In this document: piece after piece, positions 12,969 through 27,378 of the stretch
Layout of the letters: each line of letters opens with the position of its first letter
Numbering within the stretch: position 1 is the first letter of the stretch
NCBI GenBank assembly: GCA_034408725.1
Contig: JAWXCN010000192.1
Span: 1-27,378, forward strand
Reading direction: 5' to 3'
Length of the DNA: 27,378 nt
From: Candidatus Hydrogenedentota bacterium
GTDB taxonomy: Bacteria > Hydrogenedentota > Hydrogenedentia > Hydrogenedentales > SLHB01
Program-made: the position numbers and the translations under genes
Notes under the pieces: generated by a model
What the model was told of the DNA's origin: nothing
Databases searched by the model: none
What the model saw: the letters and a program-made list of their open reading frames with translations, nothing else

Positions 12969-13212
12969 CGGGGAACCACTCCTCCACGCTGCTATTATAC
13001 ACATTCAGGGTATATTTATTCGGTGGGATATGTTGTCGCAGGCTGTTTTGCGCGATTTGACGTCCACACTATCCTGTGGTATAGTTTCGCTGGTTTGACA
13101 CCTCTTGGGGCGGGTCTGCCCATTTTGGGCTTGGCCGCCCTGTTCCGTTGGCGGATGCGGGCAGTGCTAGTGTACGGTAACCCATTAAATGGCAATAAGT
13201 TGCAGGATACCG

Positions 13213-14964
13213 TTGGGCAAATATTCTCCAGAGATTAAGGCGCAGGTTCTCGCATCAACTGACATCGTCGAGTTGATTGGCGCCGCATTGGAGCTAAAGC
13301 CATCCGGTGGCGGAAGATTTCTTGGGCTCTGCCCGTTCCACAACGAGAAGACACCTTCGTTTAACGTCAGCCGGGACCGCCAGCAATTCTACTGTTTCGG
13401 ATGCGAAAAAGGTGGCGACGCGATCAGCTTTCTCATCGAGCACGAAGGTCTGACCTTTCCGGAAGCAATGCGAAAGCTCGCAGACCGCGCGGGGATTACA
13501 TTGCCCTCGCCGACGGACCACGACAACAAAGAGGATTACTTGCGGCGGCAACTGATCGAACTGAGTAGCTTTGCCGCCGGATATTTTGCTGATATGCTCA
13601 AAGACCCTCTGAAAGGCGGCGCCGCCCGCACGTATCTGAAGACCCGCAACCTCAAACCCGAAACGCACCGCCGCTTCGGGATCGGGTATGCACCGGATGG
13701 CTGGTCCTCGCTGCTTGACGCCGCACGTGTCAAGGGCTATCGCGACGCCGTTCTGGATGCATCGGGTCTCGTGAAACGCGGCGAACGCGGTTCCTTCTAC
13801 GATACGTTCCGAAACCGCTTAATAGTGCCCATCCGCGACGTGAGCGGAAACGTCGTCGCGTTTGGCGGGCGCGATCTCGCTGGTGACTCCCAGGCTAAAT
13901 ACATTAACAGCCCCGAGAGCATGATTTATAAAAAGGGCCGGATTCTATACGGCCTATACGAAGCGCGCGACGCCATGCGCAAGGAAAAGCGCGCGCTCCT
14001 GGTTGAAGGATACTTCGACCTCATGCGCTGTTTCGACGAGGGTGTCTGCAATGTCATCGCGACGTGCGGCACCGCATTGACCTCGGAGCAGGCCCAACTG
14101 ATTCGGCGGTATGTACCCGAAGTCATCGTTGTCTTCGATGGCGACGCGGCGGGTATCCGGGCCGCATTGCGCGGCATCGCTATCCTCACGGCAGCAGGCC
14201 TCACGGTACGGGCAATGACCTTGCCCGACGGTAACGACCCCGATGATTACATCCGCGACGCAGGTGTCGAGGCATTTCAACATTTGATCGATACCGCGCA
14301 GGACTTCGTCACCTTCTATGTCCGCATGAACGAACCGCGGCTTTCCACCATCGAAGGCCGGACCGACGTTGCGCGGGAAATTTTTACTATCGTGCAGAGT
14401 TTGGACGATACCCTGCGCACGGACGAGTACCTCAAGCGCACCGCGCGAGAATTGCAGTTGGATGAGTGGAGTGTGCGCCGCGAATATGAAACGGTGCTCC
14501 GGCGGCGTGAGGCGGGACGGTCCGTGCCGAAGGTTGAACTGTCGAGTGGGCCGAAGTTTACTCTTGACGATACCGATTTTATTGCTTATATCATTACAAA
14601 CGACGCCGCGCGAAAGCGCGCATCGCAATTCCTAAACGGCATTTTCCTGAAACCCGGGCCATTGGCCCAGGTATTAATTGCTGTACTGGCCGGCGATGCC
14701 ACGTCCATAACCGCGTTGGACGACGACCCCTCGCGCCAGTTGTTCGCGGCAGCCAGCAACCGCCACATCGAGCCGGAAGCGGGCGAAGAATTGCTCGAAA
14801 AACGTCTAAAAAGCCTGCGAAAAGAGTCCCTCCTGGATGAAGACGCCAACGTTCTCGCGCAAATGCGCGAAGCCAAACAACGGGGTGATACGACCGCCGA
14901 GGCCCAATTGGCGTTCCGGCGGGTGGGCATACGTCAAGAAATAGATAGGCTGGGCGCGGCATAA
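13213..14964 (+). CDS. dnaG: DNA primase (start uncertain: TTG 13213 or ATG 13189)
   Basis: CHC2 zinc finger CPFHNEKTPSF...YCFGC, FRNRLIVPI, FGGR, KYINSPE and TOPRIM VEGYFD...FDGDAAG...DPDD. Confidence 0.97.
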   Translation: MGKYSPEIKAQVLASTDIVELIGAALELKPSGGGRFLGLCPFHNEKTPSFNVSRDRQQFYCFGCEKGGDAISFLIEHEGLTFPEAMRKLADRAGITLPSPTDHDNKEDYLRRQLIELSSFAAGYFADMLKDPLKGGAARTYLKTRNLKPETHRRFGIGYAPDGWSSLLDAARVKGYRDAVLDASGLVKRGERGSFYDTFRNRLIVPIRDVSGNVVAFGGRDLAGDSQAKYINSPESMIYKKGRILYGLYEARDAMRKEKRALLVEGYFDLMRCFDEGVCNVIATCGTALTSEQAQLIRRYVPEVIVVFDGDAAGIRAALRGIAILTAAGLTVRAMTLPDGNDPDDYIRDAGVEAFQHLIDTAQDFVTFYVRMNEPRLSTIEGRTDVAREIFTIVQSLDDTLRTDEYLKRTARELQLDEWSVRREYETVLRRREAGRSVPKVELSSGPKFTLDDTDFIAYIITNDAARKRASQFLNGIFLKPGPLAQVLIAVLAGDATSITALDDDPSRQLFAAASNRHIEPEAGEELLEKRLKSLRKESLLDEDANVLAQMREAKQRGDTTAEAQLAFRRVGIRQEIDRLGAA

Positions 14965-15039: not shown

Positions 15040-16818
15040 ATGGGCACCAAGATTTCGGCCGACCGTGAAGTGATGAAGTCGAAGGCGATCGAGCTTGCCA
15101 AGAAGAAAAAGGGCAAGCTCACCTACGACGATTTGAATGATTTGCTCCCCGCCGACAGCAAAGTCGACATCTCCGTCGAGATTGACGAGATGATGGTCAT
15201 GCTTAGCGGCATGGACATCGACATCGTCGATGAGCTTCGCGTCGATGCGGAGACCAAACAGGTCCAGGAAGAGAAAGACAAGGCTGCGCGCCGCGCCGAG
15301 GCGCGTAAGGAAGCCGCGCAGACCCGTCTTGAACGCGCGGACGATCCCGTGCGGATGTATCTACGCGAGATGGGTCGCGTCCCTCTCCTCACCAAGGATC
15401 AGGAAGTTGCGATTGCCAAGCGCATCGAAGCGGCGGAGAACGATCTTACCGAGCTTCTGCTGAGCACGCCTTACACCTTCAAGGAAGTGTCGATGCTTGC
15501 CGCGCGCATCCTCGCCGGCCGCATGAGCTTTGGCCAGATCACGGAAGTCGAAGAGCCGAAGGAACACGAAAAGTTTCTCAAGAAACTTCCGGGCATGATG
15601 GAGCAGATGAACCATCATGAAGCGCAGATCGAGCTTCAGGAAAAACGCGCGCGCCGCTCCGGACTTTCCGACCGCAGCATCGACAACATTTTGCATCGCG
15701 TGCTCGAACTGCGCCACATGCAGGCCGACATTGTCCGCGAGTTCCGCCTGAAGACCAAAGAGATCATGAAAATCGCGCGCAAGATTAAAAGTCTCAAGCG
15801 CCGAATCCAGTCTTCCCGCGACGAAATTGATCGGGTCGAGCGCGAGATTGGGTTCTCGACGGAAGAAGTCCGCGCGATGGGCGTGCAGCTCCGGCGCAGC
15901 GCCTCCGCCGCGAACAAGCTCGGCGTGGACCGGGATCAGATTTTCGATGCCGAACGGCGCCTTGATCTTGCAAATCGCAAAGTCAACCAGATCGAGATGG
16001 ATTCCAAACTGAATTCGGACCAGATCACCGTGCTCATCGACACGATTAAAGAGAAAGAAGAGCGCATTTACAAAGCGAAGATGGAGCTTGTCGAGGCCAA
16101 CCTTCGTCTTGTTGTCAGTATCGGTAAGAAATACACGAACCGCGGCATGTCGTTCCTTGACCTGATCCAGGAAGGCAACATCGGCCTGATGAAAGCGGTG
16201 GACAAGTTCGAATACCAGCGCGGCTACAAGTTCAGCACGTACGCGACGTGGTGGATTCGCCAGGCCATCACGCGCTCCATCGCGGACCAGGCGCGCACCA
16301 TCCGAATTCCCGTACACATGATCGAATCGATCAACAAGCTTGTCCGCACCAGCCGCCGGCTTGTGCAGGAATACGGCCGCGAACCCAGCGCCGAGGAAAT
16401 TGCCGAGCAGATGCAAATGTCCGCGGACAAGGTCCGCAGCATCCTTAAAATTGCGCAGGAAGCCATCAGCCTCGAAACGCCCGTGGGCGATGACGGCGAC
16501 AGCAACTTCGGCGACTTCATCGAAGACAAGAGCGCGGAGTCTCCCGCGAACGCGACGGCGTTCACCGTGTTCCAGGAAAAGCTCGACGAAGTGCTTTCCT
16601 CGCTCACGGAGCGCGAAGAAAAAGTGCTACGCCTCCGCTTCGGCCTTGGCGACGGTTACCCGCGCACGCTCGAAGAAGTTGGCAGCGTGTTCAACGTCAC
16701 CCGCGAACGCGTCCGCCAGATAGAAGCCAAAGCGCTTCGCAAAATGCGACACCCGACCCGCGCGCGCGACCTCAAGCCGTTTCTCGATTGGACACTGGGA
16801 CAGAACAGCAACAATTAG
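15040..16818 (+). CDS. rpoD: Primary RNA polymerase sigma factor RpoD
   Basis: Region 1.1; [12 protein letters not shown]; non-conserved region; [33 protein letters not shown]; region 4 [21 protein letters not shown]. Confidence 0.98.
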
Positions 16819-16829
16819 GAATTGGCTGG

Positions 16830-17085
16830 ACTCCAAGCGGGAGCTTCCGGCGCGCGCGTTCCCAAAGCTGGGAGCTTTGGGAACGAGGGGTCTGGTGAAG
16901 TCGCGGAACACAGCTTCGGGCATGCCCGTTCCCCAGAAACGAGGGGTCTAGTGAAGTCGCGGAACTCAGCTTCGGGCATGCCCGTTCCCCACAGCAGGAG
17001 CTTCGGAACGCGGAGTCTGGTGGCGGCTCCCGCAGCGTAACGCGGCCCCGCATTCACTCCTCCTTTGAAGGGGGGCAGGGGGGAT
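16830..17085. repeat. REP/BIME-like palindromic repeat cluster between rpoD and the tRNA
   Basis: Perfect 13-bp hairpin CGTTCCCAAAGCT-GGG-AGCTTTGGGAACG (16857-16885). A 54-bp direct repeat (16882-16935 and 16938-16991, 2 mismatches) carries the palindrome CGGGCATGCCCG in each copy. Degenerate hairpin at 16983-17010, and TCCTCCTTTGAAGGGGGG...GGGGGGA at about 17058-17085. Confidence 0.8.
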
Positions 17086-17110: not shown

Positions 17111-17187
17111 GGGCCCATAGCTCAGTTGGTTAGAGCAGGTGACTCATAATCACTTGGTCGTAGGTTCGAGTCCTACTGGGCCCACCA
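17111..17187 (+). tRNA. tRNA with anticodon CAT, most likely tRNA-Ile2 (lysidine-modified)
   Basis: Cloverleaf: acceptor GGGCCCA/TGGGCCC-A-CCA, D arm GCTCAGTTGGTTAGAGC, anticodon arm GGTGA-CTCATAA-TCACT, T arm GTAGG-TTCGAGT-CCTAC. C4-G69/C5-G68 pairs and overall resemblance to ileX-type tRNAs. No C1 mismatch or three G-C anticodon pairs, so it is not the initiator. Confidence 0.93.
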
Positions 17188-18695
17188 TCTACACTTCCAT
17201 TGTCAGTGGATGACATTCCACGAATAGCCTTGCAAACATTGACTAATTTGTGATCGCTCGCATTCGATTCTCCGTGTTCGGTATTAGAAGCTTGAATGTC
17301 ACCAATTGACTGAAAATCACAGTTATCGCCAGAGGCTGGTGCAACATTTGGTGCAACCAAACTCTGGGCGTCCATCGGAATGACGGGAAGTGCGTCGAGG
17401 GCGCGACCTATGTCCACAAGTTCCAAATGCGTGTACGTTGTTGATGTCAATTTGGGATCACTGTGCCTCATCGCGGCTTGTGCCACTTGCATTGATGCAC
17501 CGCTCCGGCCCATGAACGTCGCGAAGGTATGACGCAAGGAGTGGAGATCCAGGGTCCGCCCGCTCTGGTCACGTTTGGGGATACCAGCGGCACGCAAATC
17601 AAGGTCAAAAACCTTTATCGACGGCATGTTGGCGAATACGCGAGCGTTTGCTGCAGAATGGAGCGGCACCAGTTGCCCGCTTTTACCTGTCGTGACCCAT
17701 GCATTTTTGGCGTCAAGGTAATTCTTCAAATCTTCCGCGACATCGGGTCTTAGCGCCACGCGGGCCAACTTCCGATTTTTCGCGTAGCGGGCTTCGAGCG
17801 TGATGCGAGGGGATTCGCCGCCTAACGTTAATGCCCCCTCAGTTAAAGTCTTAACTTCATTACATCGCAATCCAGTCAAGGCCATCAATTTATACGCCGT
17901 TGCGCGTTCGAGACCCAGTAGCTTGAGGCGTTGCCGTGTAGATTCCGACAGTTTTGCCGAAACACCGCGATTACCTAGCTTCGAATCAAGAGGCCGCTCT
18001 TTTGCCGCACGGATTAGTTTAGTGAGTTCGTCTGTTGTCAGAGCGCGACGGGGACGTCTCGCGTCAACTTGCTCGTTGGAGCGCGGTACCCCGGCGAATG
18101 GATTCACGTGTCTTCGCTGTGTACGAAGCAACCAAGCGCCAAAAGAGGTAGCGGCTACGCGAAAACCATTTCGCACCCTTGCCGAAAAGTGTTGGCCGTC
18201 AAGCCAACGCTCGAAGATTTCGCGCCGTAGATCACTTAAACGACTGAAATTACATCCTGCGTTCATGCGTTCGAGGTACCGCCTCGTCTTCTTTTGATGT
18301 TCGACTGTTGTTCCCTTCGCCACCAGATGGCTTAAAAACCCGTCGATGTGAGATTCGAGCGCCGCGTGGGCGTGTAGTGTCGCGGCGTTCTCCGCTACGG
18401 TTATTACCCCGCTCCGCACCAATTCAGCTTGCCGTTCAAGTTTTGTGAGTACACTAAGCGCAGCACCTCTGTCACGGCATCCGGTAGAGATTTCGCGAAC
18501 GACGTCTTGACCATCCCGATATTTCGCAATATAGGTTCGCGATTCCGTCGTAATGCGTCCGTTTTCAATTATGCGGGCTGTCCGAGGTTTTCCCTTCCCG
18601 TCCGTCCATTGCGCCCACTTCTGTAGATTTTTGACGATTACAATGGCACCCTCAGGCAAATGCCGCGTCACAGATTTTCGAAATACAGTACCCAT
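17130..18695 (-). CDS. Tyrosine recombinase / phage-type integrase
   Basis: Catalytic motifs LTGLRCNE (R), YAKN (K), LHSLRHTF (H-x-x-R) and MRHSDPKLTSTTYTH (H, Y); N-terminal arm-binding and SAM-like regions. AAGAGGA SD before TTG 18698/ATG 18695. Confidence 0.95.
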   Translation of the reverse strand: MGTVFRKSVTRHLPEGAIVIVKNLQKWAQWTDGKGKPRTARIIENGRITTESRTYIAKYRDGQDVVREISTGCRDRGAALSVLTKLERQAELVRSGVITVAENAATLHAHAALESHIDGFLSHLVAKGTTVEHQKKTRRYLERMNAGCNFSRLSDLRREIFERWLDGQHFSARVRNGFRVAATSFGAWLLRTQRRHVNPFAGVPRSNEQVDARRPRRALTTDELTKLIRAAKERPLDSKLGNRGVSAKLSESTRQRLKLLGLERATAYKLMALTGLRCNEVKTLTEGALTLGGESPRITLEARYAKNRKLARVALRPDVAEDLKNYLDAKNAWVTTGKSGQLVPLHSAANARVFANMPSIKVFDLDLRAAGIPKRDQSGRTLDLHSLRHTFATFMGRSGASMQVAQAAMRHSDPKLTSTTYTHLELVDIGRALDALPVIPMDAQSLVAPNVAPASGDNCDFQSIGDIQASNTEHGESNASDHKLVNVCKAIRGMSSTDNGSVDGGPSRTRTYDQVIMSHLL

Positions 18696-18921
18696 CAATC
18701 TATTCCTCTTTGTGCGGCATTAACGTTGGCGATGCCGAGAAGTGTAGCGGCAGTGACAGTTACGATGCATGTTTTCCACCTTCTGATCTTGAGCGGTCGA
18801 GGTCTGGAAATTTCCATTCATTCACGTTCAAGAGACCACCGTTGCCCGCGCGTTCAATTGGATTGGGTGTCCCTATACTGTATCCACCGGGAAAATTCAA
18901 CCAGCGCTACGCTAACTCCAT

Positions 18922-18996
18922 CGAAGATGATCAAGGTCTCGCGAACATACTCACCTTTGTGTACCTGATCGCCTTCGGTCATCATGATCACCTTCG
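18922..18996. repeat. Cluster of 12-mer repeats (consensus TGATCACCTTCG), candidate replication-origin iterons
   Basis: TACTCACCTTTG 18948-18959, TGATCGCCTTCG 18966-18977, TGATCACCTTCG 18985-18996, plus an inverted copy CGAAGATGATCA at 18922-18933. Confidence 0.55.
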
Positions 18997-19008
18997 AGTG
19001 CGTGTTCA

Positions 19009-20823
19009 CTATCTACTGGTTACTGGCGGCTGATTGGGCAATCGCCAGTGCCACTTCTGTCCGTCGGATCCGGGTTGGCCATGCTTTTCCGCACGCACGT
19101 CGAGGCAGGTCTTCGCGCGTCGTAACGTTGCTTTCGCGATGCCGTTTTCCTTTGCTTGTGCCTGAATGTCCAAGGCGGATGCGGGCAAAACTTCCAGCAG
19201 GAACTCCTTGGCAGCGGAGAGCTGAGACTGGAATTCGTGGTTTACCGGAGCAAGTAGGTCCTGTGCAGTGTGTGGACTCTCGCCTTGCCACTCTATGACT
19301 GGCGCACCCGATGCTGCGACATTCACGGCAAACGAAAGCGACGCCGGAAAACGCCCAACGTTTATCTTCGATACGGCCAATACGCGACGGTTTGCATTGT
19401 CCGGGTCGTTTGCAATAACCATCCCAATCCGTGCTGCGGCGATGATTCCAATACTTCCGCCGCCTCTATACAACGGATTCGGGCCAGCGACCTTGTTCAA
19501 GTGGCGCACCAATATCACTGCGATTCCGGCGGATTCAGCCAGTCGTTTCAGGGGGTGCAGGGCCAATCGCACGTCCTGGTCTTTATGCGCGCATATTCCG
19601 GTAGAGAGAAACGCCATGATCGGGTCAATCACGAGTAACCGCGCTTTACTTTCGGCTACTGCCTCGCGAAGTCGCTCAATATCCTTTGGAATTGAAACTG
19701 GGCCTGCGGCGCTCCCTGCGTTTGGTTTAATTGTATAAACAAGCGAGACATCGGCGCCCGCGGCTTCAAGCCGGGGCCGAATAGTGTCCGCTTCACCGTC
19801 TTCTGCGTTCAGCATGACAACCGAACACGGTGGTCGACGTTCTGTCTCACCAGGGAACGGAAGCCCAGTGGAGAGGCGGGCAGCGATATCGATGGTAACG
19901 AGGCTCTTGCCCCCACCCGGGTCTCCGTCCAAGACAGTGATTTTGCCACAGGCGATTCGATTCCTCCACAACCAATCCACCGGTTCGGACGCAATTTCGC
20001 CGAAACTGATTATTTGGGATCTGTTTTGGCCTGTTGCAAATACTTGGCCAATGTCATCGACCATGGACATCAACTGTTCTCGCGTCCCTCCCGCGGCGAT
20101 CCAGTCTGACACGTCGCCTTTTTCAGCCAAGTGAGGCAAGTTGAGCACGCGGATACTGCGCGCTATGCCCTCCACGAAACTTACGACCAACTCGCCGTGT
20201 TTTCGTCCGGCCTCATCGTTATCAGGAAGTACGATTACGTCGGCATTTCGTAACGCTTCGCTTAGATCCTCGGTCCATTTGCCCGCGCCGCCAGAGTTGC
20301 AAGTGGCGACGACGCCAATGCCCTCGAGGCCCAGGACGTCTTTCTCACCCTCCACGACAAAAATCGGTTGACCTTCGACCACCGCCTTGGCAACCGCTGG
20401 CCAACGGAAGATAACGCGGCGGATTCCTTTCAGGTTCCAAAGCCAACCACCCTTCCCATCGGGTCTACGTTGGCGAAACTTTTTTGGCTGCTTGCGAATC
20501 ACCTGATAAAGCGTATTGCCCGAAAGATCCGTATACTCGTATACGGTCTCACTTGCTATCGGGGCGTCATTTGTTGTCTCGCGTTTTTGTGACGGGTCTT
20601 TGTCTATTGGTGGGGTTACGCTTTCTGGGGAGAGCGCTGCGATAATGTCCGCATATTTGCAGCCGGCATGGCAGTGCAACAGCGCTAGACCATTTCCGGC
20701 TCGATCAATAGCGAGTGAGGGATCATGGTCGTCGTGGGCAGGGCAAAGTGCCATCATTCCATTGCCGTTGGCTCGGACTCCCGATAGATGGGGAAGCACG
20801 TCGTCGAACTTTAAAAATGACAT
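19009..20823 (-). CDS. Primase-helicase fusion: zinc finger + TOPRIM + RecA/AAA_25 (RepA-like) helicase (start at ATG 20823)
   Basis: CPAHDD..PSL...LLHCHAGC zinc finger; VVEGEKD...LPDND TOPRIM; Walker A GDPGGGKS; Walker B LLVIDP; RHLNK. Strong SD AAGGAGG overlapping the AlpA stop codon. Confidence 0.9.
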   Translation of the reverse strand: MSFLKFDDVLPHLSGVRANGNGMMALCPAHDDHDPSLAIDRAGNGLALLHCHAGCKYADIIAALSPESVTPPIDKDPSQKRETTNDAPIASETVYEYTDLSGNTLYQVIRKQPKKFRQRRPDGKGGWLWNLKGIRRVIFRWPAVAKAVVEGQPIFVVEGEKDVLGLEGIGVVATCNSGGAGKWTEDLSEALRNADVIVLPDNDEAGRKHGELVVSFVEGIARSIRVLNLPHLAEKGDVSDWIAAGGTREQLMSMVDDIGQVFATGQNRSQIISFGEIASEPVDWLWRNRIACGKITVLDGDPGGGKSLVTIDIAARLSTGLPFPGETERRPPCSVVMLNAEDGEADTIRPRLEAAGADVSLVYTIKPNAGSAAGPVSIPKDIERLREAVAESKARLLVIDPIMAFLSTGICAHKDQDVRLALHPLKRLAESAGIAVILVRHLNKVAGPNPLYRGGGSIGIIAAARIGMVIANDPDNANRRVLAVSKINVGRFPASLSFAVNVAASGAPVIEWQGESPHTAQDLLAPVNHEFQSQLSAAKEFLLEVLPASALDIQAQAKENGIAKATLRRAKTCLDVRAEKHGQPGSDGQKWHWRLPNQPPVTSR

Positions 20824-20834
20824 TTCATTCCTCC

Positions 20835-21080
20835 TTAGCGCTGTGCTGGACAGCCGGCAGCTATCCACGAATCGATGTCTGATTTTCTCCAACGCACCAG
20901 CGCGCCGAGGCGCAGCGCTTTCGGAATTTTCCCGCAGTCCCGCAAGCGCCACACATGGCGGCAGGAGCAGCTTAGGAGCGCCGCGACGACGCTCACATCG
21001 ATGAGGGCAGCTTGATGGTCCGATGATGTGGGACTTGGGGTTGGGGAAGAGGAGGTTCGATCGCTAGATGCTTGTACCAT
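20835..21080 (-). CDS. AlpA/excisionase-like helix-turn-helix protein
   Basis: LIDVSVVAALLSCSCRHVWRLRDCGKIPKALRLGALVRWRKSDIDSWI matches the AlpA/Xis winged-HTH pattern. AAAGGA SD. Confidence 0.88.
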   Translation of the reverse strand: MVQASSDRTSSSPTPSPTSSDHQAALIDVSVVAALLSCSCRHVWRLRDCGKIPKALRLGALVRWRKSDIDSWIAAGCPAQR

Positions 21081-21267
21081 GGCTCCGATGTCCTTTCATT
21101 ACCCGACGGACCCTGTGTCCGTCTGCGGTGGACATTTTTGCCATGGAATCTTGCGATGAAACTTGACTGAAATTTGAAGCGGAGTTTTTGCGATTTGTAA
21201 CTGTTTGATATGAAGTGACTTGTGGAATTACGATTGGGTTCAAATGAAACTTGATGTCAACTAGCTC

Positions 21268-22134
21268 TCATTTCTTTTTTGTTGTTTTGCCGTCGGGGGA
21301 GCGTCCCGACCGGCCAAGGCGCAGTTTGTTTTCTACTTCTTGTTCGGACTCATCTCCTTTGGGTTTCATGTTCCGGGCCTGAAGAACGCGATTTATACCG
21401 TCCATCGAAATACGCCGCTGCTTGCCCTTCAAACCATTGGTTTCCAATTTCCCCGCGCTGCACCATCTCGAAACCGTTGGGTCAGAGACTTCTAATAGTA
21501 TTGCAGCGTGCGATACCTTCACAGACGGGGTGCTTTCGATACCCTGTCCCGAAGCGATATTCACTTGGTCCCATTTTTCAATCGCGCACAGCACTAACCA
21601 CAGGAATTTCCTGGTGGCATCCGATATGGGCTTGCAAGGGCAATTTGCAACAACCCGCCACGCATCGATGTGGTTTATCGACAAGCGCTTCACGAGTTTG
21701 CGGTTTTCATAGCAGTCCTTCATTTCAAGATGTATCAGTCCAAGCCGGTGCATTTCAGTAGCTTTTCGGCAGAGGGCATCAAGGACTATCGGTGCCCCAT
21801 TAGTGTAATTACCGAGCGATGAACTCTTATCCCAGAATTCGAAGAACCAAAACAACAGGTGGCGCTGCACGGGGTTCAAATTTTCATAGGGTATGTCGTT
21901 CTCCGGGCTATCCCAAAGCACCGTTTGTGAGGGTGGCGGAGCGAGAACGAGTTCCACATCTTCAGTAAGCTCAATCAACGAATGTGGGGAGGTTTCTTGG
22001 TTTCGCACGACGAAAGAACATTTGCTCGGATACCCCGATTCTTCAGGCCCGCCTGTACGCATTTCCGAGTTTGCCTTGTCGAAAATGGCCCAATTTTTCA
22101 CAATGAGCGGTTGCACGTCGAGAGAATTTGGCAT
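21268..22134 (-). CDS. Hypothetical protein with C-terminal MerR/HTH_17-like DNA-binding domain
   Basis: 288-aa ORF with GGGAGA SD. C-terminal VKVSHAAILLEVSDPTVSRWCSAGKL...RRISMDGI is HTH-like; the N-terminal about 200 aa are unrecognised. Confidence 0.7.
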   Translation of the reverse strand: MPNSLDVQPLIVKNWAIFDKANSEMRTGGPEESGYPSKCSFVVRNQETSPHSLIELTEDVELVLAPPPSQTVLWDSPENDIPYENLNPVQRHLLFWFFEFWDKSSSLGNYTNGAPIVLDALCRKATEMHRLGLIHLEMKDCYENRKLVKRLSINHIDAWRVVANCPCKPISDATRKFLWLVLCAIEKWDQVNIASGQGIESTPSVKVSHAAILLEVSDPTVSRWCSAGKLETNGLKGKQRRISMDGINRVLQARNMKPKGDESEQEVENKLRLGRSGRSPDGKTTKKK

Positions 22135-22690
22135 ATCAATGAGTCTCCCTGTTCATTGGTAGAATTCTATAGAATGTCAACATTGGGCAATAGGTGTTGT
22201 AGGTGGCGGCCGCGCTGCGTGAAACAAACGAATCGAGAACGCGAACTTCGCGTCGGTGCAACATGAAATTCCACATCGCGCAAAAAGGGTTGCAACGCTT
22301 TTTATGGTCTTGTTTTTTTCGTGATAACGGTCATTTCGACATTCACAAAACTCCTGAAAAGAAACTCCTGGTTCGAGCAACATTTGACAAGCGCTGTTCT
22401 CGTTAGTCGTCGCCCATTCCGTTCAAGATTTATCTATAAGATCTCCGTTTAAAGGGTTAAATTCAATCTTTCAGAGGAGTCAGAATACGTCGGGCAGGAG
22501 TTTCCCTTGACACCGATGGACAATAATTTGTTCAAGAGGATAATCCATGACTCAACCGCCGGCTGGACTTGGTCCCAGATTGATAGTACTCTTGGCTTTG
22601 TGGGGCGCGAACAGGTGCGGGGGGGCGCGACCTGACGAGTGCCATTCGCGCATTTTCCTGGGGTGATCGAACACGAGGGCTGGGGTTAGC

Positions 22691-25600
22691 GTGAGCGATA
22701 CATTTTTCGGAAGACCGATTCTAAATTCGCCCTATGACTACCCCCAACGACACTGGGAGCTGGACGAGCAGGGCCAGCCGACGCAACGCATCATCGAGAC
22801 CCGCCGCAAAGCCGAGTTCATCACACCCATTCCAAAACCCCGAAAGCGAAAGGGGGCGAAGCAGCAGGACCTCGTTTTCGATGAAGGTAAGGGTCTATCC
22901 ACCCAGGAACAGCAGTACGAACAAACCTCCGTCGTCATCAACGAACTTCGCCGTCAGGTGGACCAATGGCGCAGCCTTCCGAACCCGGCGGACTGGCATG
23001 TCACCCCCGAAACAGCCCGGTTGCTCCAGCATTGGCGGCACCATCCCTTCGCTGGTATTCGGCCTTTCTTCTGCCAGATTGAAGCCGTGGAAACTGCGAT
23101 TTGGCTGACGGAGGTCGCGCCGGCAACCGGGCAGATGGGCAAGGGTTTCCTCGAGCACCTGGCCAATGCAAACAACGATGCCAATCCGGAGCTGATGCGC
23201 CTCGCGTTGAAACTCGCCACCGGCGCCGGCAAGACCACCGTCATGGCCATGCTTATCGCGTGGCAGGCCATCAACGCCGCCCGCAGACCTGGTAGCAAGA
23301 AATTCACCCGTGGCTTCCTCGTCGTCACGCCAGGCCTCACCATCAAAGACCGCCTGCGCGTTTTGCAGCCCAACGACCCCGATAGCTACTACAAAGACCG
23401 TGAACTGATTCCCAGCGACCTGGTAAGGGAATTGACGCACGCCAAGATCGTCATCACGAATTATCACGCGTTCAAGCTCCGCGAGCGCATGGAATTGTCC
23501 AGTGGCGGGCGCGCACTGCTCCAGGGCCGCGGCGCGGAACCATTGAACACCCTTGAAACCGAAGGTCAAATGATTCAGCGCGTCATGTCGGAGCTGATGG
23601 GTATGAAAAATATCCTCGTGCTGAACGACGAGGCGCACCACTGCTACCGGGAGAAGCCGGGTGAGGTAGTCGAGGGCGAGATTGCGGGCGAGGAAAAGAG
23701 AGAAGCCGAGAAGAATCTGGAGGCGGCCCGGTTATGGATTTCCGGACTGGAAGCAGTGAACCGACACATCGGTCTTACAAATGTCATCGACTTGTCGGCC
23801 ACGCCCTTCTTCCTCCGCGGCTCAGGCTATGCTGAGGGAACCCTGTTCCCATGGACCATGAGCGACTTCTCCCTTATGGATGCCATCGAGTGCGGCATTG
23901 TGAAACTGCCACGCGTACCAGTTGCGGAGAACATTCCAGGCGACGAGATGCCGATATACCGCAATCTCTGGGAAAACATTCGAAAGGACATGCCCAAGAA
24001 GGGCCGTGGCAAGAGCGAGGAACTCGACCCGCTCAAGCTCCCAACGCGATTGCAGACGGCGCTGGCAGCCCTGTACGGCCATTACGAGAAGACTTACGAG
24101 CTGTGGGTGGAAAAGAAGATCAAGGTGCCGCCCTGCTTCATCATCGTTTGCCAGAATACGTCCATCTCGAAGTTGGTATACGACTACGTTTCCGGGTTTC
24201 ACCGAAAGAACGACGATGGCTCGACCACACTTGAGAACGGCCGTCTGGCACTCTTCCGAAACTTCGACGAAACAACCGGCAACCCTTTCCCTCGGCCAAA
24301 CACTATTCTCATCGACAGTGAGCAACTCGAAGCCGGCGACGCGCTCGACAACAACTTCCGCGCGATAGCGGCTGACGAAATAGAACGATTTCGCCGTGAA
24401 ATCATCGAACGAACCGGTGATGCCCATGCCGGCGACAAAATCACCGACCAGGAACTGCTCCGCGAAGTCATGAACACCGTCGGCAAGCCTGATCAACTTG
24501 GAGGTTCCATCCGCTGCGTCGTCTCCGTCTCGATGCTCACCGAAGGTTGGGATGCCAACACCGTCACCCACGTCCTTGGAATCCGCGCGTTCGGCACGCA
24601 ACTTCTGTGCGAACAGGTTATCGGCCGCGCTTTGCGTCGTCAGTCATACGAACTGAACGAAGAAGGGTTGTTCAACGTCGAGTACGCCGACGTATTCGGT
24701 ATCCCCTTCGATTTCACGGCCAAGCCGGTGGTGGCGCCGCCACAGCCTCCGCGTCCCACGGTCCAGGTGAAAGCCATGCGCCCGGAGCGCGACAGCCTCG
24801 AGATTCGCTTCCCGCGCGTCGAAGGGTACCGCGTGGAATTGCCAGAGGAACGGCTGGCAGCCAGCTTCACCGACGATTCCATCCTGGAACTTACTCCGGA
24901 ACTGGTCGGTCCCTCCATCACACGCAACTCCGGAATCATCGGTGAAAGTGCAGACATGAATCTGGAGCACCTCGCGGACATGCGCCAGTCCACCGTCCTC
25001 TTCGAGGTAACGAAACGACTCCTATACACCAAATGGCGCGATCCCGGCGAGGAGCCCAAACTCTTCCTCTTCGGTCCGCTCAAGCGCATCACCAAGCAAT
25101 GGATGGACACCTGTCTGGTCTGCAAAGGGGACACCTATCCCGCGTTGCTCATGTACCAGGAACTGGCGGATTGGGCTTGCGAACGCATCACAGCCGCAAT
25201 TACCCGGCAGTTCCTGGGCGAGCGCCCCATCAAGGTGTTGCTGAATCCTTACAACCCGACCGGCTCGACCAACCACGTGAATTTCAGGACATCCAAGACC
25301 GACCGCTGGGAAACGGACTCGCGGCGTTGCCATATCAACTGGGTAATTCTCGATAGCGATTGGGAAGCCGAATTCTGCCGGGCCGCGGAATCTCATCCCC
25401 AGGCAAAAGCCTACGTGAAGAACCACAACCTCAGTTTCGAGGTGCCCTACCGCTACGGCTCGGAAACCCGAAAGTATCGGCCCGACTTCATCGTGCTCGT
25501 GGACGACGGTCATGGCGACGAAGATTTGCTGCATCTGATCGTCGAGATAAAGGGCTACCGCGGCGAGGACGCAAAGGACAAGAAATCGACCATGGAGGTC

Positions 25601-25762
25601 TATTGGGTGCCCGGCGTGAACAACAATGGACAGTACGGGAGATGGGCTTTCGCAGAATTCACCGACGTTTATCAGATCGAAGACGACTTAGAAGAATTAA
25701 TCGCCTCAAAATTCACGGAGATGATTGATGCGGTGGTCGTAAACAGTATATCGACACCATAA
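22691..25762 (+). CDS. Type III restriction enzyme Res subunit (SF2 helicase + PD-(D/E)XK nuclease; resembles the BPTD_3080-type family)
   Basis: RPFFCQIEA Q-motif, Walker A LATGAGKT, DEAHH, LSATP, MLTEGWDA, EQVIGRALRR and C-terminal YRPDFIV...IVEIKG. Confidence 0.92.
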   Translation: MSDTFFGRPILNSPYDYPQRHWELDEQGQPTQRIIETRRKAEFITPIPKPRKRKGAKQQDLVFDEGKGLSTQEQQYEQTSVVINELRRQVDQWRSLPNPADWHVTPETARLLQHWRHHPFAGIRPFFCQIEAVETAIWLTEVAPATGQMGKGFLEHLANANNDANPELMRLALKLATGAGKTTVMAMLIAWQAINAARRPGSKKFTRGFLVVTPGLTIKDRLRVLQPNDPDSYYKDRELIPSDLVRELTHAKIVITNYHAFKLRERMELSSGGRALLQGRGAEPLNTLETEGQMIQRVMSELMGMKNILVLNDEAHHCYREKPGEVVEGEIAGEEKREAEKNLEAARLWISGLEAVNRHIGLTNVIDLSATPFFLRGSGYAEGTLFPWTMSDFSLMDAIECGIVKLPRVPVAENIPGDEMPIYRNLWENIRKDMPKKGRGKSEELDPLKLPTRLQTALAALYGHYEKTYELWVEKKIKVPPCFIIVCQNTSISKLVYDYVSGFHRKNDDGSTTLENGRLALFRNFDETTGNPFPRPNTILIDSEQLEAGDALDNNFRAIAADEIERFRREIIERTGDAHAGDKITDQELLREVMNTVGKPDQLGGSIRCVVSVSMLTEGWDANTVTHVLGIRAFGTQLLCEQVIGRALRRQSYELNEEGLFNVEYADVFGIPFDFTAKPVVAPPQPPRPTVQVKAMRPERDSLEIRFPRVEGYRVELPEERLAASFTDDSILELTPELVGPSITRNSGIIGESADMNLEHLADMRQSTVLFEVTKRLLYTKWRDPGEEPKLFLFGPLKRITKQWMDTCLVCKGDTYPALLMYQELADWACERITAAITRQFLGERPIKVLLNPYNPTGSTNHVNFRTSKTDRWETDSRRCHINWVILDSDWEAEFCRAAESHPQAKAYVKNHNLSFEVPYRYGSETRKYRPDFIVLVDDGHGDEDLLHLIVEIKGYRGEDAKDKKSTMEVYWVPGVNNNGQYGRWAFAEFTDVYQIEDDLEELIASKFTEMIDAVVVNSISTP

Positions 25763-25793
25763 AATTCGACCAGGATCGGTAGCGATAAACAGA

Positions 25794-26480
25794 ATGTTTG
25801 ATGACGAGCCAAAGAGCCTTGAAGAATCACTCGTGGCAACACTAGCCCGAACGGATTTGCGAGATACGATAACTGAACTCTCCGAAGTTGGTCTTGATGC
25901 ACTTTTTGATGACGGAGTTGCCCGGGACGTGCCGATAATCGGAACGCTTTTCTCGTTAGCCTCGGGAGTCATGACAATTCGCGACCGACTTTTTGCAAAG
26001 AAAGTTCTGCGGTTTTTGGCCGCACTCGACGACATTCCGAGGGAAGAACGGCAAGCCCAAATAGATCACATGGCTGCGGATCCGAAGGAGCGTAGGCGTA
26101 TAGGTGAACAACTAATTCTATTGTTGGATCGGCTAAACGATATGGGCAAGCCTGCCCTGCTGGCCAAAGCGTTTCAGGCATTCCTGAAAGACCAGATTGA
26201 GCGCGCACAGTTTCAAGCTTTGGCCAACGCAATAGACGGCATACTTCCGGAGAACGTGGGCATTTTCAAGTCGCGGATGGATGCGCGAGGCAGAATTCAT
26301 GATCGAGAGTCCGATGATGCTACGGCAAACTTCATGCAGTGCGGACTCGTCGTTTTGAAACTTGAAGACATCGACACTACCGCCCGCTGGGGAGATGGAA
26401 GTGTCACATTGGCTCGCCCAGGCTACTACGCTACGAGCCGTTTGGGCTCCTTGTTCTACGAAATAGTATTAAAAAACTGA
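25794..26480 (+). CDS. Hypothetical protein (228 aa, mostly helical) nested between res and mod
   Basis: Clean ORF co-oriented with res, 31 nt downstream. N-terminal segment LDALFDDGVARDVPIIGTL...RDRLFAKKVLRFL and a possible C-terminal winged-helix-like end (CGLV...YYATSRLG). Confidence 0.78.
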   Translation: MFDDEPKSLEESLVATLARTDLRDTITELSEVGLDALFDDGVARDVPIIGTLFSLASGVMTIRDRLFAKKVLRFLAALDDIPREERQAQIDHMAADPKERRRIGEQLILLLDRLNDMGKPALLAKAFQAFLKDQIERAQFQALANAIDGILPENVGIFKSRMDARGRIHDRESDDATANFMQCGLVVLKLEDIDTTARWGDGSVTLARPGYYATSRLGSLFYEIVLKN

Positions 26481-26500
26481 ATCCACGACTCGCAAAACCG

Positions 26501-26533
26501 ATGCATCAAAGTAGTCATCATTTGATGTATACT
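26501..26533 (+). promoter_or_regulatory. vapBC promoter/operator: inverted repeat overlapping a TATACT -10 box
   Basis: ATGCATCAAA-N10-TTTGATGTAT (9 of 10 complementary), TATACT at 26528-26533 and GGGAGG SD before the GTG at 26564. Confidence 0.65.
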
Positions 26534-26563
26534 GCACGGAACGATTAGGGAGGGACGGATGCC

Positions 26564-26761
26564 GTGAGAACTACCATCAACCTCGACGAACAACTCCTGG
26601 GCAAGGCCCAGCGCATCACCGGCGTGACTGAGCGCACATCACTCATCCACGCTGGTCTGCTCGCGCTCATCGAGCGCGAAAGCGCGCGCCGCCTGGCCCG
26701 ACTGGGCGGCAGCGAACCCAAGGCGAGTGCGCCGCCCCGGCGACGGGCCAGGCCCGCATGA
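26564..26761 (+). CDS. vapB: VapB-family antitoxin (ribbon-helix-helix)
   Basis: MRTTINLDEQLL..AQRITG...RTSLI..GL.ALIERESARRLARLGGSEP; ATGA overlap with the toxin gene. Confidence 0.88.
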   Translation: MRTTINLDEQLLGKAQRITGVTERTSLIHAGLLALIERESARRLARLGGSEPKASAPPRRRARPA

Positions 26762-27129
26762 TTTTGGTCGACACCTCGGTCTGGATTGACCACCTCCGCC
26801 ATGGAGACAAAGCCATTCAGGAGGTCCTCAATGCGGATCGCGCGGTAATGCATCCCTTCGTGCTCGGCGAACTGGCTTGCGGCAACCTCAAGAACCGGCG
26901 CGAACTCCTGAGTCTGTGGGCGGACCTTCCCGCGGCGCGCATGGCCACCGACGAAGAGGCCCTCGCGTTTATCGAGCGGCGCGCGTTGATGGGCAAGGGC
27001 ATCGGGTATATGGATGTCCACCTGCTCGCGTCCGTGGCGCTCGACGCCGGCACGCGCCTGTGGACGCGCGATAAACGGCTCGCCACGGTGGCCGAATCGC
27101 TGCATTTGAATTTCGCGGAACACAAATAG
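26758..27129 (+). CDS. vapC: VapC-family PIN-domain toxin
   Basis: MILVDTSVWIDHLR, VLGELACG, GIGYMDVHLLAS and LWTRDKRL supply the conserved acidic PIN residues. Confidence 0.92.
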   Translation: MILVDTSVWIDHLRHGDKAIQEVLNADRAVMHPFVLGELACGNLKNRRELLSLWADLPAARMATDEEALAFIERRALMGKGIGYMDVHLLASVALDAGTRLWTRDKRLATVAESLHLNFAEHK

Positions 27130-27138
27130 GAACTGCGC

Positions 27139-27378
27139 ATGGCAAAGAAATCGGCGGGATCGAAGTCCACCAAAACAGTCACGACCCTCACCCACGACGA
27201 AGCGAAGCGGAAGAACATTCCCACGGCGGAGCATCAGTCTGTCGTGGCGAAGGAGGCGCTGGACCCGATTCGTGTCGCGTATGAGCGGCGGAACCGCGAC
27301 CTGGACCCGCAGTTGGTGTGGCGCGGGAAGGATGAGCAGGATTGGTCAGACCTCGTGGTGCAGGCGCCGCCGCTGTAC
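27139..27378 (+). CDS. 5' end of a site-specific DNA methyltransferase (Type III Mod subunit), truncated by window edge
   Basis: ATG at 27139, open to the end: MAKKSAGSKSTKTVTTLTHDEAKRKNIPTAEHQS...RNRDLDPQLVWRGKDEQDWSDLVVQAPPLY. The NIPTAE and DPQLVW.GK motifs are typical N-termini of the Mod partners of this Res family. Catalytic motifs lie outside the window. Confidence 0.8.
   Translation, partial: MAKKSAGSKSTKTVTTLTHDEAKRKNIPTAEHQSVVAKEALDPIRVAYERRNRDLDPQLVWRGKDEQDWSDLVVQAPPLY

Follow-up and report, generated by a model that had tools for sequence, protein, structure and literature searches.

What kind of element lies beyond the tRNA gene that follows dnaG and rpoD in a Candidatus Hydrogenedentota bacterium, and did it arrive there by integration? 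The window analysed here is the whole stretch of 27,378 nucleotides, i.e., the entire contig JAWXCN010000192.1 (C192) of the source genome GCA_034408725.1 (G000), a 280-contig draft that is 92% complete. The feature under study spans positions 17111-27378, where it is cut by the contig end inside the modification gene mod (other contigs are likewise given as C and a number, G001-G004 are congeners, and G071, G075, G111 and G113 are further genomes of the phylum). An earlier note, made from the letters alone, had described a minimalist, satellite-like integrative element carrying defence cargo. We consider that the feature is probably a helper-dependent ("hitcher"-type) integrative genomic island, seated in the 3' half of a tRNA-Ile2(CAU) gene after dnaG-rpoD. 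The evidence is its gene content and defence cargo, its position at a site that is empty in a congener, and the recurrence of the same module at other tRNAs together with attachment (att) repeats.

The leftward arm is a core of four co-oriented minus-strand genes that point at the tRNA, running over 5.0 kb from 22134 down to 17130 in the order X (HTH_17), alpA, primase-helicase and int. Gene calls and profile matches agree with what had been read from the letters (HTH, AlpA/Xis, primase-helicase and integrase in about 5 kb towards the tRNA, with divergent restriction-modification (RM) and toxin-antitoxin cargo), and all four open reading frames (ORFs) are intact, with the catalytic residues present. 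The gene nearest the tRNA, int (17130-18695, minus strand), encodes a tyrosine integrase of 521 aa (PF00589 4.1e-14; phrog_1 5e-26) in which R278, H386-x-x-R389 and Y422 are found, and it is 63% identical to an integrase on C215, 58% to that of G002 and 39% to that on C191. Its frame stays open for 100 codons beyond the catalytic tyrosine and the last 19 codons run antisense into the tRNA. The same layout, ca. 100 open codons past the catalytic tyrosine and a stop inside the antisense tRNA, is seen in five integrases of the family (window 17130-17430, C191, C215, G002:C73 and G113:C535), and thus the att core should lie within the 3' end of int, so that integration and excision would alter its final codons. 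An integrase gene that ends within its att site resembles intP of Mx8.

Upstream of int lies a primase-helicase of 604 aa (19009-20823, minus strand; AAA_25 1.6e-30, Toprim_2 5.7e-05, phrog_239 DNA primase/helicase 1.6e-33), combining a CHC2 zinc finger, a TOPRIM domain and a RecA-fold helicase of the AAA_25 type. The Pfam scan (E<=0.01) returned AAA_25, Toprim_2, Toprim_3, Toprim and KaiC only, and a profile built from 25 homologues matched PDB structures of the DnaG zinc domain, of the TOPRIM domains of T7 gp4 and DnaG, and of RSF1010 RepA, in agreement with the Zn-finger/TOPRIM/AAA_25 replicase of the earlier note. The alignment columns of E201-D205, D244/D246 and K349 are invariant. The likely start is the ATG at 20823, preceded by AAGGAGG, and the stop codon of alpA lies 11 nt upstream of it, i.e., stop, AAGGAGG and ATG fall within 15 nt. 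This next gene (20835-21080, minus strand) encodes an AlpA/excisionase-type HTH_17 protein of 81 aa (PF12728 6.9e-08, 33.1 bits against a cut-off of 27; TIGR01764 excise 3.4e-4; phrog_66 3.3e-07), which scored 18.3 bits with Phage_AlpA (PF05930), below the 21-bit cut-off, and homologues at 50-52% identity occupy the equivalent position in C191, G002 and G113.

The first gene of the leftward operon (21268-22134, minus strand) encodes protein X of 288 aa, whose only recognisable part is a C-terminal HTH_17 domain (1.1e-06, residues 207-254) and which we take to be a regulator. Its N-terminal domain is rare: a word-index search returned no relatives, and an exhaustive search of 1.84 billion representatives yielded, besides X itself, 11 proteins at E<=1e-3, of which four align with the N-terminal domain. 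It is weakly similar to the equivalently placed gene of G002 (25% over 214 aa, E 1e-4); its Atlas model is poor (pLDDT 0.42) and its Atlas matches are below 0.9. Between the two arms lies a divergent intergenic region of 556 bp (22135-22690, GC 0.48) that presumably holds the promoters of both. One sigma-70-like site was located at 22517-22544 (plus strand), and the promoter and terminator scan gave no more sites than in shuffled sequences.

The integration target, attL of the element, is the single tRNA of the window (17111-17187, plus strand), recognised by ARAGORN, which labels it as Met, and by Rfam (75.4 bits, with nothing else in the Rfam scan of the window). Its anticodon is CAT, as in three tRNAs of the G000 genome. 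Given that it has 6/7 acceptor-stem pairs in common with tRNA-Ile(GAT) on C151, and that another CAT tRNA, the one on C114, shows what we take to be initiator traits (a 1:72 mismatch and an anticodon stem with three G-C pairs), the window tRNA is likely, to judge by its sequence, tRNA-Ile2. The E. coli ileX gene presumably also sits just after rpoD. The left 17 kb of the window are ordinary chromosome, with genes for a citrate-type transporter, lipoyl ligase, dnaE, cinA, dnaG (13189-14964) and rpoD (15040-16818).

Comparison of the dnaG-rpoD-tRNA locus in the four congeners provides the evidence for insertion. In G002, tRNA-Ile2 is followed after 328 nt by a FG-GAP/RGL11-like gene, i.e., the site is empty, as the earlier note had hoped to find in some relative, and the G000 orthologue of this gene is located on a separate contig, C65. 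G001 contains at the same place a 3.1-kb islet, which includes a homologue of alpA (42% identity) and ends in a partial tRNA copy (86% over 51 nt). The islet of G003 is 2.4 kb long; its end repeats the tRNA 3' end exactly (38/38 nt), and the remnant of an integrase tail comes next. Given that the site is empty in G002 and holds different islets in the three others, the window element, with its own replicase and its defence and toxin-antitoxin genes, is an insertion at a tRNA hotspot, and the region is not conserved among relatives. As for the third islet, a 57-nt integrase tail stands at the tRNA-Ile2 site of G004 (C172; L022:418-4683), followed directly by a cas6-like gene, genes without assigned function and cas1, which places a CRISPR-Cas system at the same hotspot.

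The same arrangement was found elsewhere in this little-studied phylum, which bears out the idea of a recurring family. The module tRNA|int|primase-helicase stands at five tRNAs in four Hydrogenedentota genomes, i.e., Ile2 (window), Pro-GGG (G000:C191), Lys-CTT (G002:C73), Ser-CGA (G075:C195) and Val-GAC (G113:C535), and since it recurs at four tRNAs besides that of the window, the arrangement is not due to chance. Four of the five modules contain an alpA homologue (none was found in G075 by tblastn). With the primase-helicase as query, 20 of the 41 genomes searched (G000 and 40 relatives) gave some match at E<=0.001, and full-length matches occurred at three places only, the window, G000:C191 (61-62% identity) and G002:C73 (59-63%); the genome-contig scan returned the G002 locus only. 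The family profile matched 11/135 genomes of the phylum at E<=1e-40, and among four further loci that were inspected, G075:C195 and G113:C535 share the order tRNA, int and helicase and G071:C1 and G111:C146 do not.

Repeats of tRNA ends accompany these modules. The 3' end of tRNA-Pro on C191 is repeated on C5 (53/53 nt), an islet on C215 consisting of an integrase and one further gene has a 58/62-nt repeat 3 kb away, and two exact 34-nt partial copies of tRNA-Lys stand 11.5 kb apart on G002:C81. The sibling att repeats begin at the anticodon stem and extend a few nt beyond the tRNA 3' end, and by analogy with them the att core of the window element is expected at ca. 17138-17194. If C73 joins C81, the G002 element is probably at least 27 kb long and a second element would follow it in tandem. 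The 11.5-kb element that the two tRNA-Lys copies delimit (G002:C81:133453-145009; L124) encodes a 401-aa integrase, a D5_N/DUF5906 primase, an AIPR protein, an HTH_3 protein and a serine recombinase. In G001, a genome without the primase-helicase, a partial repeat of tRNA-Pro(GGG) (98% over 45 nt) lies 9.3 kb from the tRNA gene itself (C19:112953-122341), which marks a further island flanked by repeats.

The rightward, plus-strand arm is cargo. It opens with res (22691-25762), which encodes a full-length restriction subunit of 1023 aa of the BPTD_3080 family, a ResIII helicase with a C-terminal endonuclease (NF046055 1371 bits, cut-off 800; ResIII 2.8e-09; RE_endonuc 2e-05), and at the contig end it reaches mod, a type III methyltransferase gene of which the initial 80 codons are present (27139-27378; PDLC03632 1e-22). 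Together they have the order of a BPTD_3080/type III Res-Mod system, a helicase and endonuclease Res followed by Mod. Between them lie a helical 228-aa ORF (25794-26480) and a type II toxin-antitoxin pair in which vapB (26564-26761; antitoxin, PF09957 2.9e-15) is directly upstream of vapC (26758-27129; PIN toxin, PF01850 3.4e-10) with a 4-nt overlap. The 228-aa protein matched no family in Pfam, NCBIfam, PHROGs or PADLOC (Pfam at E<=1 gave KinB_sensor 0.074 only), nine relatives of it were found, and its AF2 model (pLDDT 68.5) had no Foldseek match in the PDB at E<=1e-3. An Atlas feature score of 0.97 to unnamed or "DUF4393" clusters makes an Abi_alpha/DUF4393-like function a lead only, resting on that score. 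A 229-aa minus-strand ORF at 26545-27234 was rejected as a gene, being an Arg-rich antisense artefact over vapBC.

Of the five family members four carry defence cargo, which is an RM system in three of them and a CRISPR array in one, and in 4/5 members the cargo directly adjoins the core. G002 has a type I RM system, M78/DUF4411, a 1579-aa WD40 protein and AAA-RyR proteins, and G113 has Mrr and a type I RM system; the neighbours of the G075 module are sulfatase and SASA genes that are possibly chromosomal. In the C191 sibling (C191:21113-27038 and C5:201-253; L028, L029) the CRISPR array lies between the core genes and the att copy, and comprises 12 perfect 33-nt repeats and a partial 13th at the contig end, with spacers of 32-36 nt. 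The spacers gave no self-matches, neither Cas1 nor Cas7 was found in the 92% complete assembly, and the repeat family (<=3 mismatches) is present in 4/54 genomes of the bacterial family, with no exact match of the repeat in IMG/VR. One protein of the C191 element, full length, matched nothing in Pfam or PHROGs.

The RM genes of the window have a wide distribution of their own. A metagenome scan with res confirmed 681 of 683 candidate stretches as relatives, and in the best 80 loci res is 72-81% identical and is followed by the start of a Mod gene in 57/80. None of these 80 loci contains int, the primase-helicase, alpA, X or the 228-aa gene, so that the RM system is an independent, widely travelling cargo. 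Among 56 loci in which both gene ends could be placed, the gap between res and mod is <=150 bp in 33, 150-600 bp in 5 and >600 bp in 18. The res-mod junction (window 25762-27139), which here holds the 228-aa gene and VapBC, is thus a recurrent insertion point of this RM family.

Does the visible part belong to something larger? The primase-helicase has at least 6586 homologues at E<=1e-20 (of 8000 scored candidates) in many phyla, with 40-47% identity in metagenome-assembled genomes labelled Actinobacteria, Armatimonadaceae, Nitrospiraceae, Thermoleophilia and Limnochordia and in Rhodocaloribacter. It is 32% identical over 93% of its length to a protein of a circular 22-kb Streptomyces plasmid, which also has a co-oriented integrase and an adjacent HTH gene, and 27-29% identical over 82-84% of its length to primase/helicases of Microbacterium phages of ~62 kb. 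In IMG/VR the single-protein scan returned nothing and the profile scan confirmed 555/597 candidate stretches as encoding a relative, at <=38% identity and mostly on contigs of 30-60 kb. Judging from these sequences, this type of replicase does serve autonomous replicons. The relatives' contigs also include a circular one of 7.8 kb (L071, with a 107-nt terminal repeat) and one of 11.3 kb (L091) with the primase-helicase, int and tRNA in the order of the window.

Such full-size phages, coupled with a window that ends inside mod at 27378 and a G002 sibling of probably at least 27 kb, are what would be expected if we were looking at only the left end of a larger prophage, or of an integrative and conjugative element (ICE) or integrative and mobilizable element (IME), with the structural or transfer genes beyond the contig end. 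We regard this as very unlikely. Among the submitted ORFs of the window, Pfam, NCBIfam, PHROGs and PADLOC gave no match to capsid, terminase, relaxase or conjugation families, as had been stated from the letters, and no portal or tail gene was found in the visible element. Furthermore, capsid, portal, large terminase, tail, relaxase and type IV secretion system families are absent from the stretches covered in two siblings, 26 kb in G002 and 20 kb in G113 (Pfam on submitted ORFs; PHROGs on 16 proteins without a Pfam match), and no Pfam family of relaxases, coupling proteins or type IV secretion was found in the window or in the submitted ORFs of the siblings. No prophage or ICE gene set has therefore appeared, and the cargo stands directly beside the core in most family members. 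The only packaging hint in the family, and a point in favour of a phage end, is a 186-aa protein of G113 (C535:21235-21795; L126:6235-6795) with a small-terminase-type HTH at residues 130-184 (PF03592 1.4e-13, phrog_51 1.8e-13); it lies ~15 kb from the core. However, the match covers only ~50 residues, the DNA-binding part of TerS.

Several results do weigh against a mobile island. The direct repeat of the tRNA 3' end that the earlier note expected downstream was not found: among exact 14-25-mers of the tRNA 3' region, those of >=20 nt have no second occurrence in the 280 contigs and shorter ones match only other tRNAs and the C215 repeat, and 16-mers with <=2 mismatches gave no second copy in the window. 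The rest of mod is likewise absent from the assembly, and the element, whose right end lies beyond the contig, is at least 10.3 kb long. C65 carries P450 and ALDH genes beside the flank gene and no att copy, and since the ALDH orthologue lies on a different contig in G001, the right chromosomal flank is rearranged in G000. The repeat search gave no convincing iteron-like or origin repeats in the intergenic region, and neither a helper nor a packaging signal nor an oriT, which the methods used could not recognise, was identified.

The metagenomes show no trace of excision or of additional copies. Eight mat-metagenome runs hold the sequence as contigs (Logan), and in the four that we examined (X1-X4) the word depth of perfectly matching unitigs is similar in element and flank (X1: flank 9.39, 9.9 and 9.33, element 11, 9.3, 8.5 and 9.64), and no attP- or attB-type joints are listed in the contigs, so that neither the raised coverage nor the attP-spanning junctions that might have been hoped for were seen. 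As contigs drop rare forms, this is weak evidence for a quiescent single copy of the element in the mats. In one X3 contig the sequence departs from that of the window 7 nt beyond the tRNA, and a second contig continues for 149 nt past the window end. The metagenome scan returned no contigs of the same population (the best res match being 81%). No end overlaps of 15-200 nt join C192, C191, C5 and C65, and local alignment to C65, in search of a second att copy, gave only a 15-nt match (13/15), which was treated as chance.

Taken at face value, the missing att copy, the rearranged right flank, the single-copy depth without junction variants, and the decayed islets at the same site in G001, G003 and G004 (an alpA-only remnant and int-tail remnants) could describe a fixed and immobile remnant, i.e., a defence island at a tRNA hotspot whose att copy decayed or was lost by rearrangement. 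We think this unlikely. The four core ORFs are intact with conserved catalytic residues, a strong ribosome-binding site accompanies the tight coupling of alpA to the primase-helicase, and diverged but undamaged modules (58-63% identical), found at other tRNAs both in G000 itself and in a congener, imply recent activity of the family. The missing att copy says little, because a 92% complete draft also lacks the rest of mod.

For an integrative island that moves with help, homology and the analogy with PICMI and tycheposons (see below) suggest how the parts could work together. Int would recombine a core of ~40-60 bp, which begins at the anticodon stem and ends shortly after the tRNA, with the copy carried by the element, and the AlpA-type HTH_17 protein may act as directionality factor or activator for excision. 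The primase-helicase would then prime and unwind the excised circle, leading to its amplification, and X, as the first gene of the operon, may encode a regulator that evolves fast. The rightward arm would be interchangeable cargo, here a BPTD_3080-type res-mod pair with the 228-aa gene and VapBC in between, that could protect the host and stabilise the island. As no transfer genes are visible, movement between cells would need a helper, and we postulate that this is more likely to be a phage capsid than a conjugative element.

A bolder version would make the five modules true phage satellites of uncultivated Hydrogenedentota that use a T7-gp4-like primase-helicase instead of the D5/DUF5906 type, shuttle RM systems and one cas-less CRISPR array between tRNA sites, and carry an int that ends inside attP and changes its C-terminus on integration. 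We offer this as a possible but rather doubtful scenario. Satellite status is unproven for the element, as no capsid-hijack or packaging gene, helper, attP/attB junction or raised depth was found, and "minimalist" is likewise unsupported, since the element is cut at the contig end and a sibling is probably much longer than its visible 10.3 kb.

Two observations in the left flank stand apart from the element. Between rpoD and the tRNA there is a 56-bp tandem repeat in two copies (96% match; 16882-16991), and at 15826-16651 the depth of metagenome contigs is 30-100x that of neighbouring bins, with many variant letters, which fits a conserved rpoD core common to other mat organisms.

What, then, are its nearest relatives among described systems? 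The replicase joins a TOPRIM primase with a DnaG-type zinc finger to a RecA-fold ATPase of the hexameric-helicase type, a domain plan that recalls T7 gp4 and RSF1010 RepA, to which its sequence matches only weakly and in part (E 4e-6 to 3e-5). P4-like satellites and Gram-negative PICIs share with the window element the integration at tRNAs, an integrase, an AlpA-type regulator, a fused primase-helicase and anti-phage hotspots. P4-like elements are further characterised by sid, psu and delta and PICIs by terS, ppi, cpm and rpp, and the alpha helicase of P4 is of the D5/SF3 type, whereas that of the window is a RecA-fold AAA_25 protein. No Pfam or PHROG match to sid, psu, delta or a D5-type alpha primase-helicase was found in 17111-27378, so that the visible part does not show the traits of a P4-like element. 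It has the integrase, AlpA-type regulator and replicase of a PICI, and none of the packaging genes terS, ppi, cpm and rpp in the visible 10.3 kb, the right end lying beyond the contig.

PICMI elements (phage-inducible chromosomal minimalist islands), which a helper phage induces and packages, come close in their core. As far as the excerpted account goes, their AlpA triggers excision and their primase raises copy number, excision and replication depend on alpA, int and prim, and a hotspot of defence genes lies beside the replicase in an element of ~6 kb that integrates next to fis (PMC10803314). The int, alpA and primase core and the defence hotspot are common to both, in so far as that account describes them. 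The SatelliteFinder model given there asks for an integrase (PF00589, PF00239 or PF07508), AlpA (PF05930 or PF12728), a DUF3987 (PF13148) or DUF5906 (PF19263) primase, and fis (PMC10803314). The window supplies the integrase (PF00589) and AlpA (PF12728); it has neither such a primase nor fis, the site being the tRNA(CAT) downstream of rpoD. By the same partial account the element also differs in its Zn-finger/TOPRIM/AAA_25 replicase, placed between int and alpA, and in its size (at least 10.3 kb vs ~6 kb). By primase type, the 11.5-kb element on G002:C81 is nearer to the PICMI model than the window element is.

VEIMEs (virion-encapsidated integrative mobile elements) are small marine integrative elements which, in the excerpts of their description, are defined by recovery from virus particles (PMC9618062). 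On that description they share integrases, AlpA, excisionases, primase/helicases and RM and Abi-like cargo with the window element, and they differ in that they were recovered from particles, whereas the latter is known from its genes alone. Similarly, the passages available from one report describe islands at tmRNA or tRNA genes with intY, alpA and defence systems that are moved by a jumbo phage, their transfer having been shown experimentally (PMC12595487). As far as those passages tell, the common traits are direct repeats at the tmRNA or tRNA, a tyrosine integrase, AlpA, defence cargo and no genes for autonomous transfer; in contrast to the window element, int and alpA lie at opposite ends, a primase-helicase is lacking, and the islands are larger.

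The nearest described logic is that of the tycheposons of Prochlorococcus. In the excerpted preprint these have a tyrosine integrase at tRNAs, flanking partial tRNAs and tandem or decayed copies, together with an excisionase, a primase/helicase and modular cargo, some variants being PICI-like with terS (bioRxiv 10.1101/2020.12.28.424599). Of the flanking tRNAs, only attL is present in the window, and partial copies are found in the siblings and in the G001 and G003 islets. The tRNA, the integrase, the excisionase, the primase/helicase and the logic of the cargo are common to tycheposons and the window family; the host phylum differs, and so does the cargo, nutrient genes there and defence genes here. 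The earlier suggestion of an undescribed family therefore holds in a narrow sense only. A literature search of titles and abstracts found no paper describing mobile elements of Hydrogenedentota, but tycheposons, PICIs, PICMI elements and VEIMEs have the same design and the replicase has thousands of homologues. The locus is a fresh example of an already described kind of element, not a new kind; it adds one more replicase type to satellite searches and changes nothing in how such elements are thought to work. Together with its four siblings it indicates that Hydrogenedentota build tRNA-linked defence islands with the toolkit of tycheposons, PICIs and PICMI elements, i.e., integrase, AlpA, a self-priming helicase and swappable cargo, and it provides concrete att sites and core genes with which mat metagenomes and viromes can be mined for helper phages.

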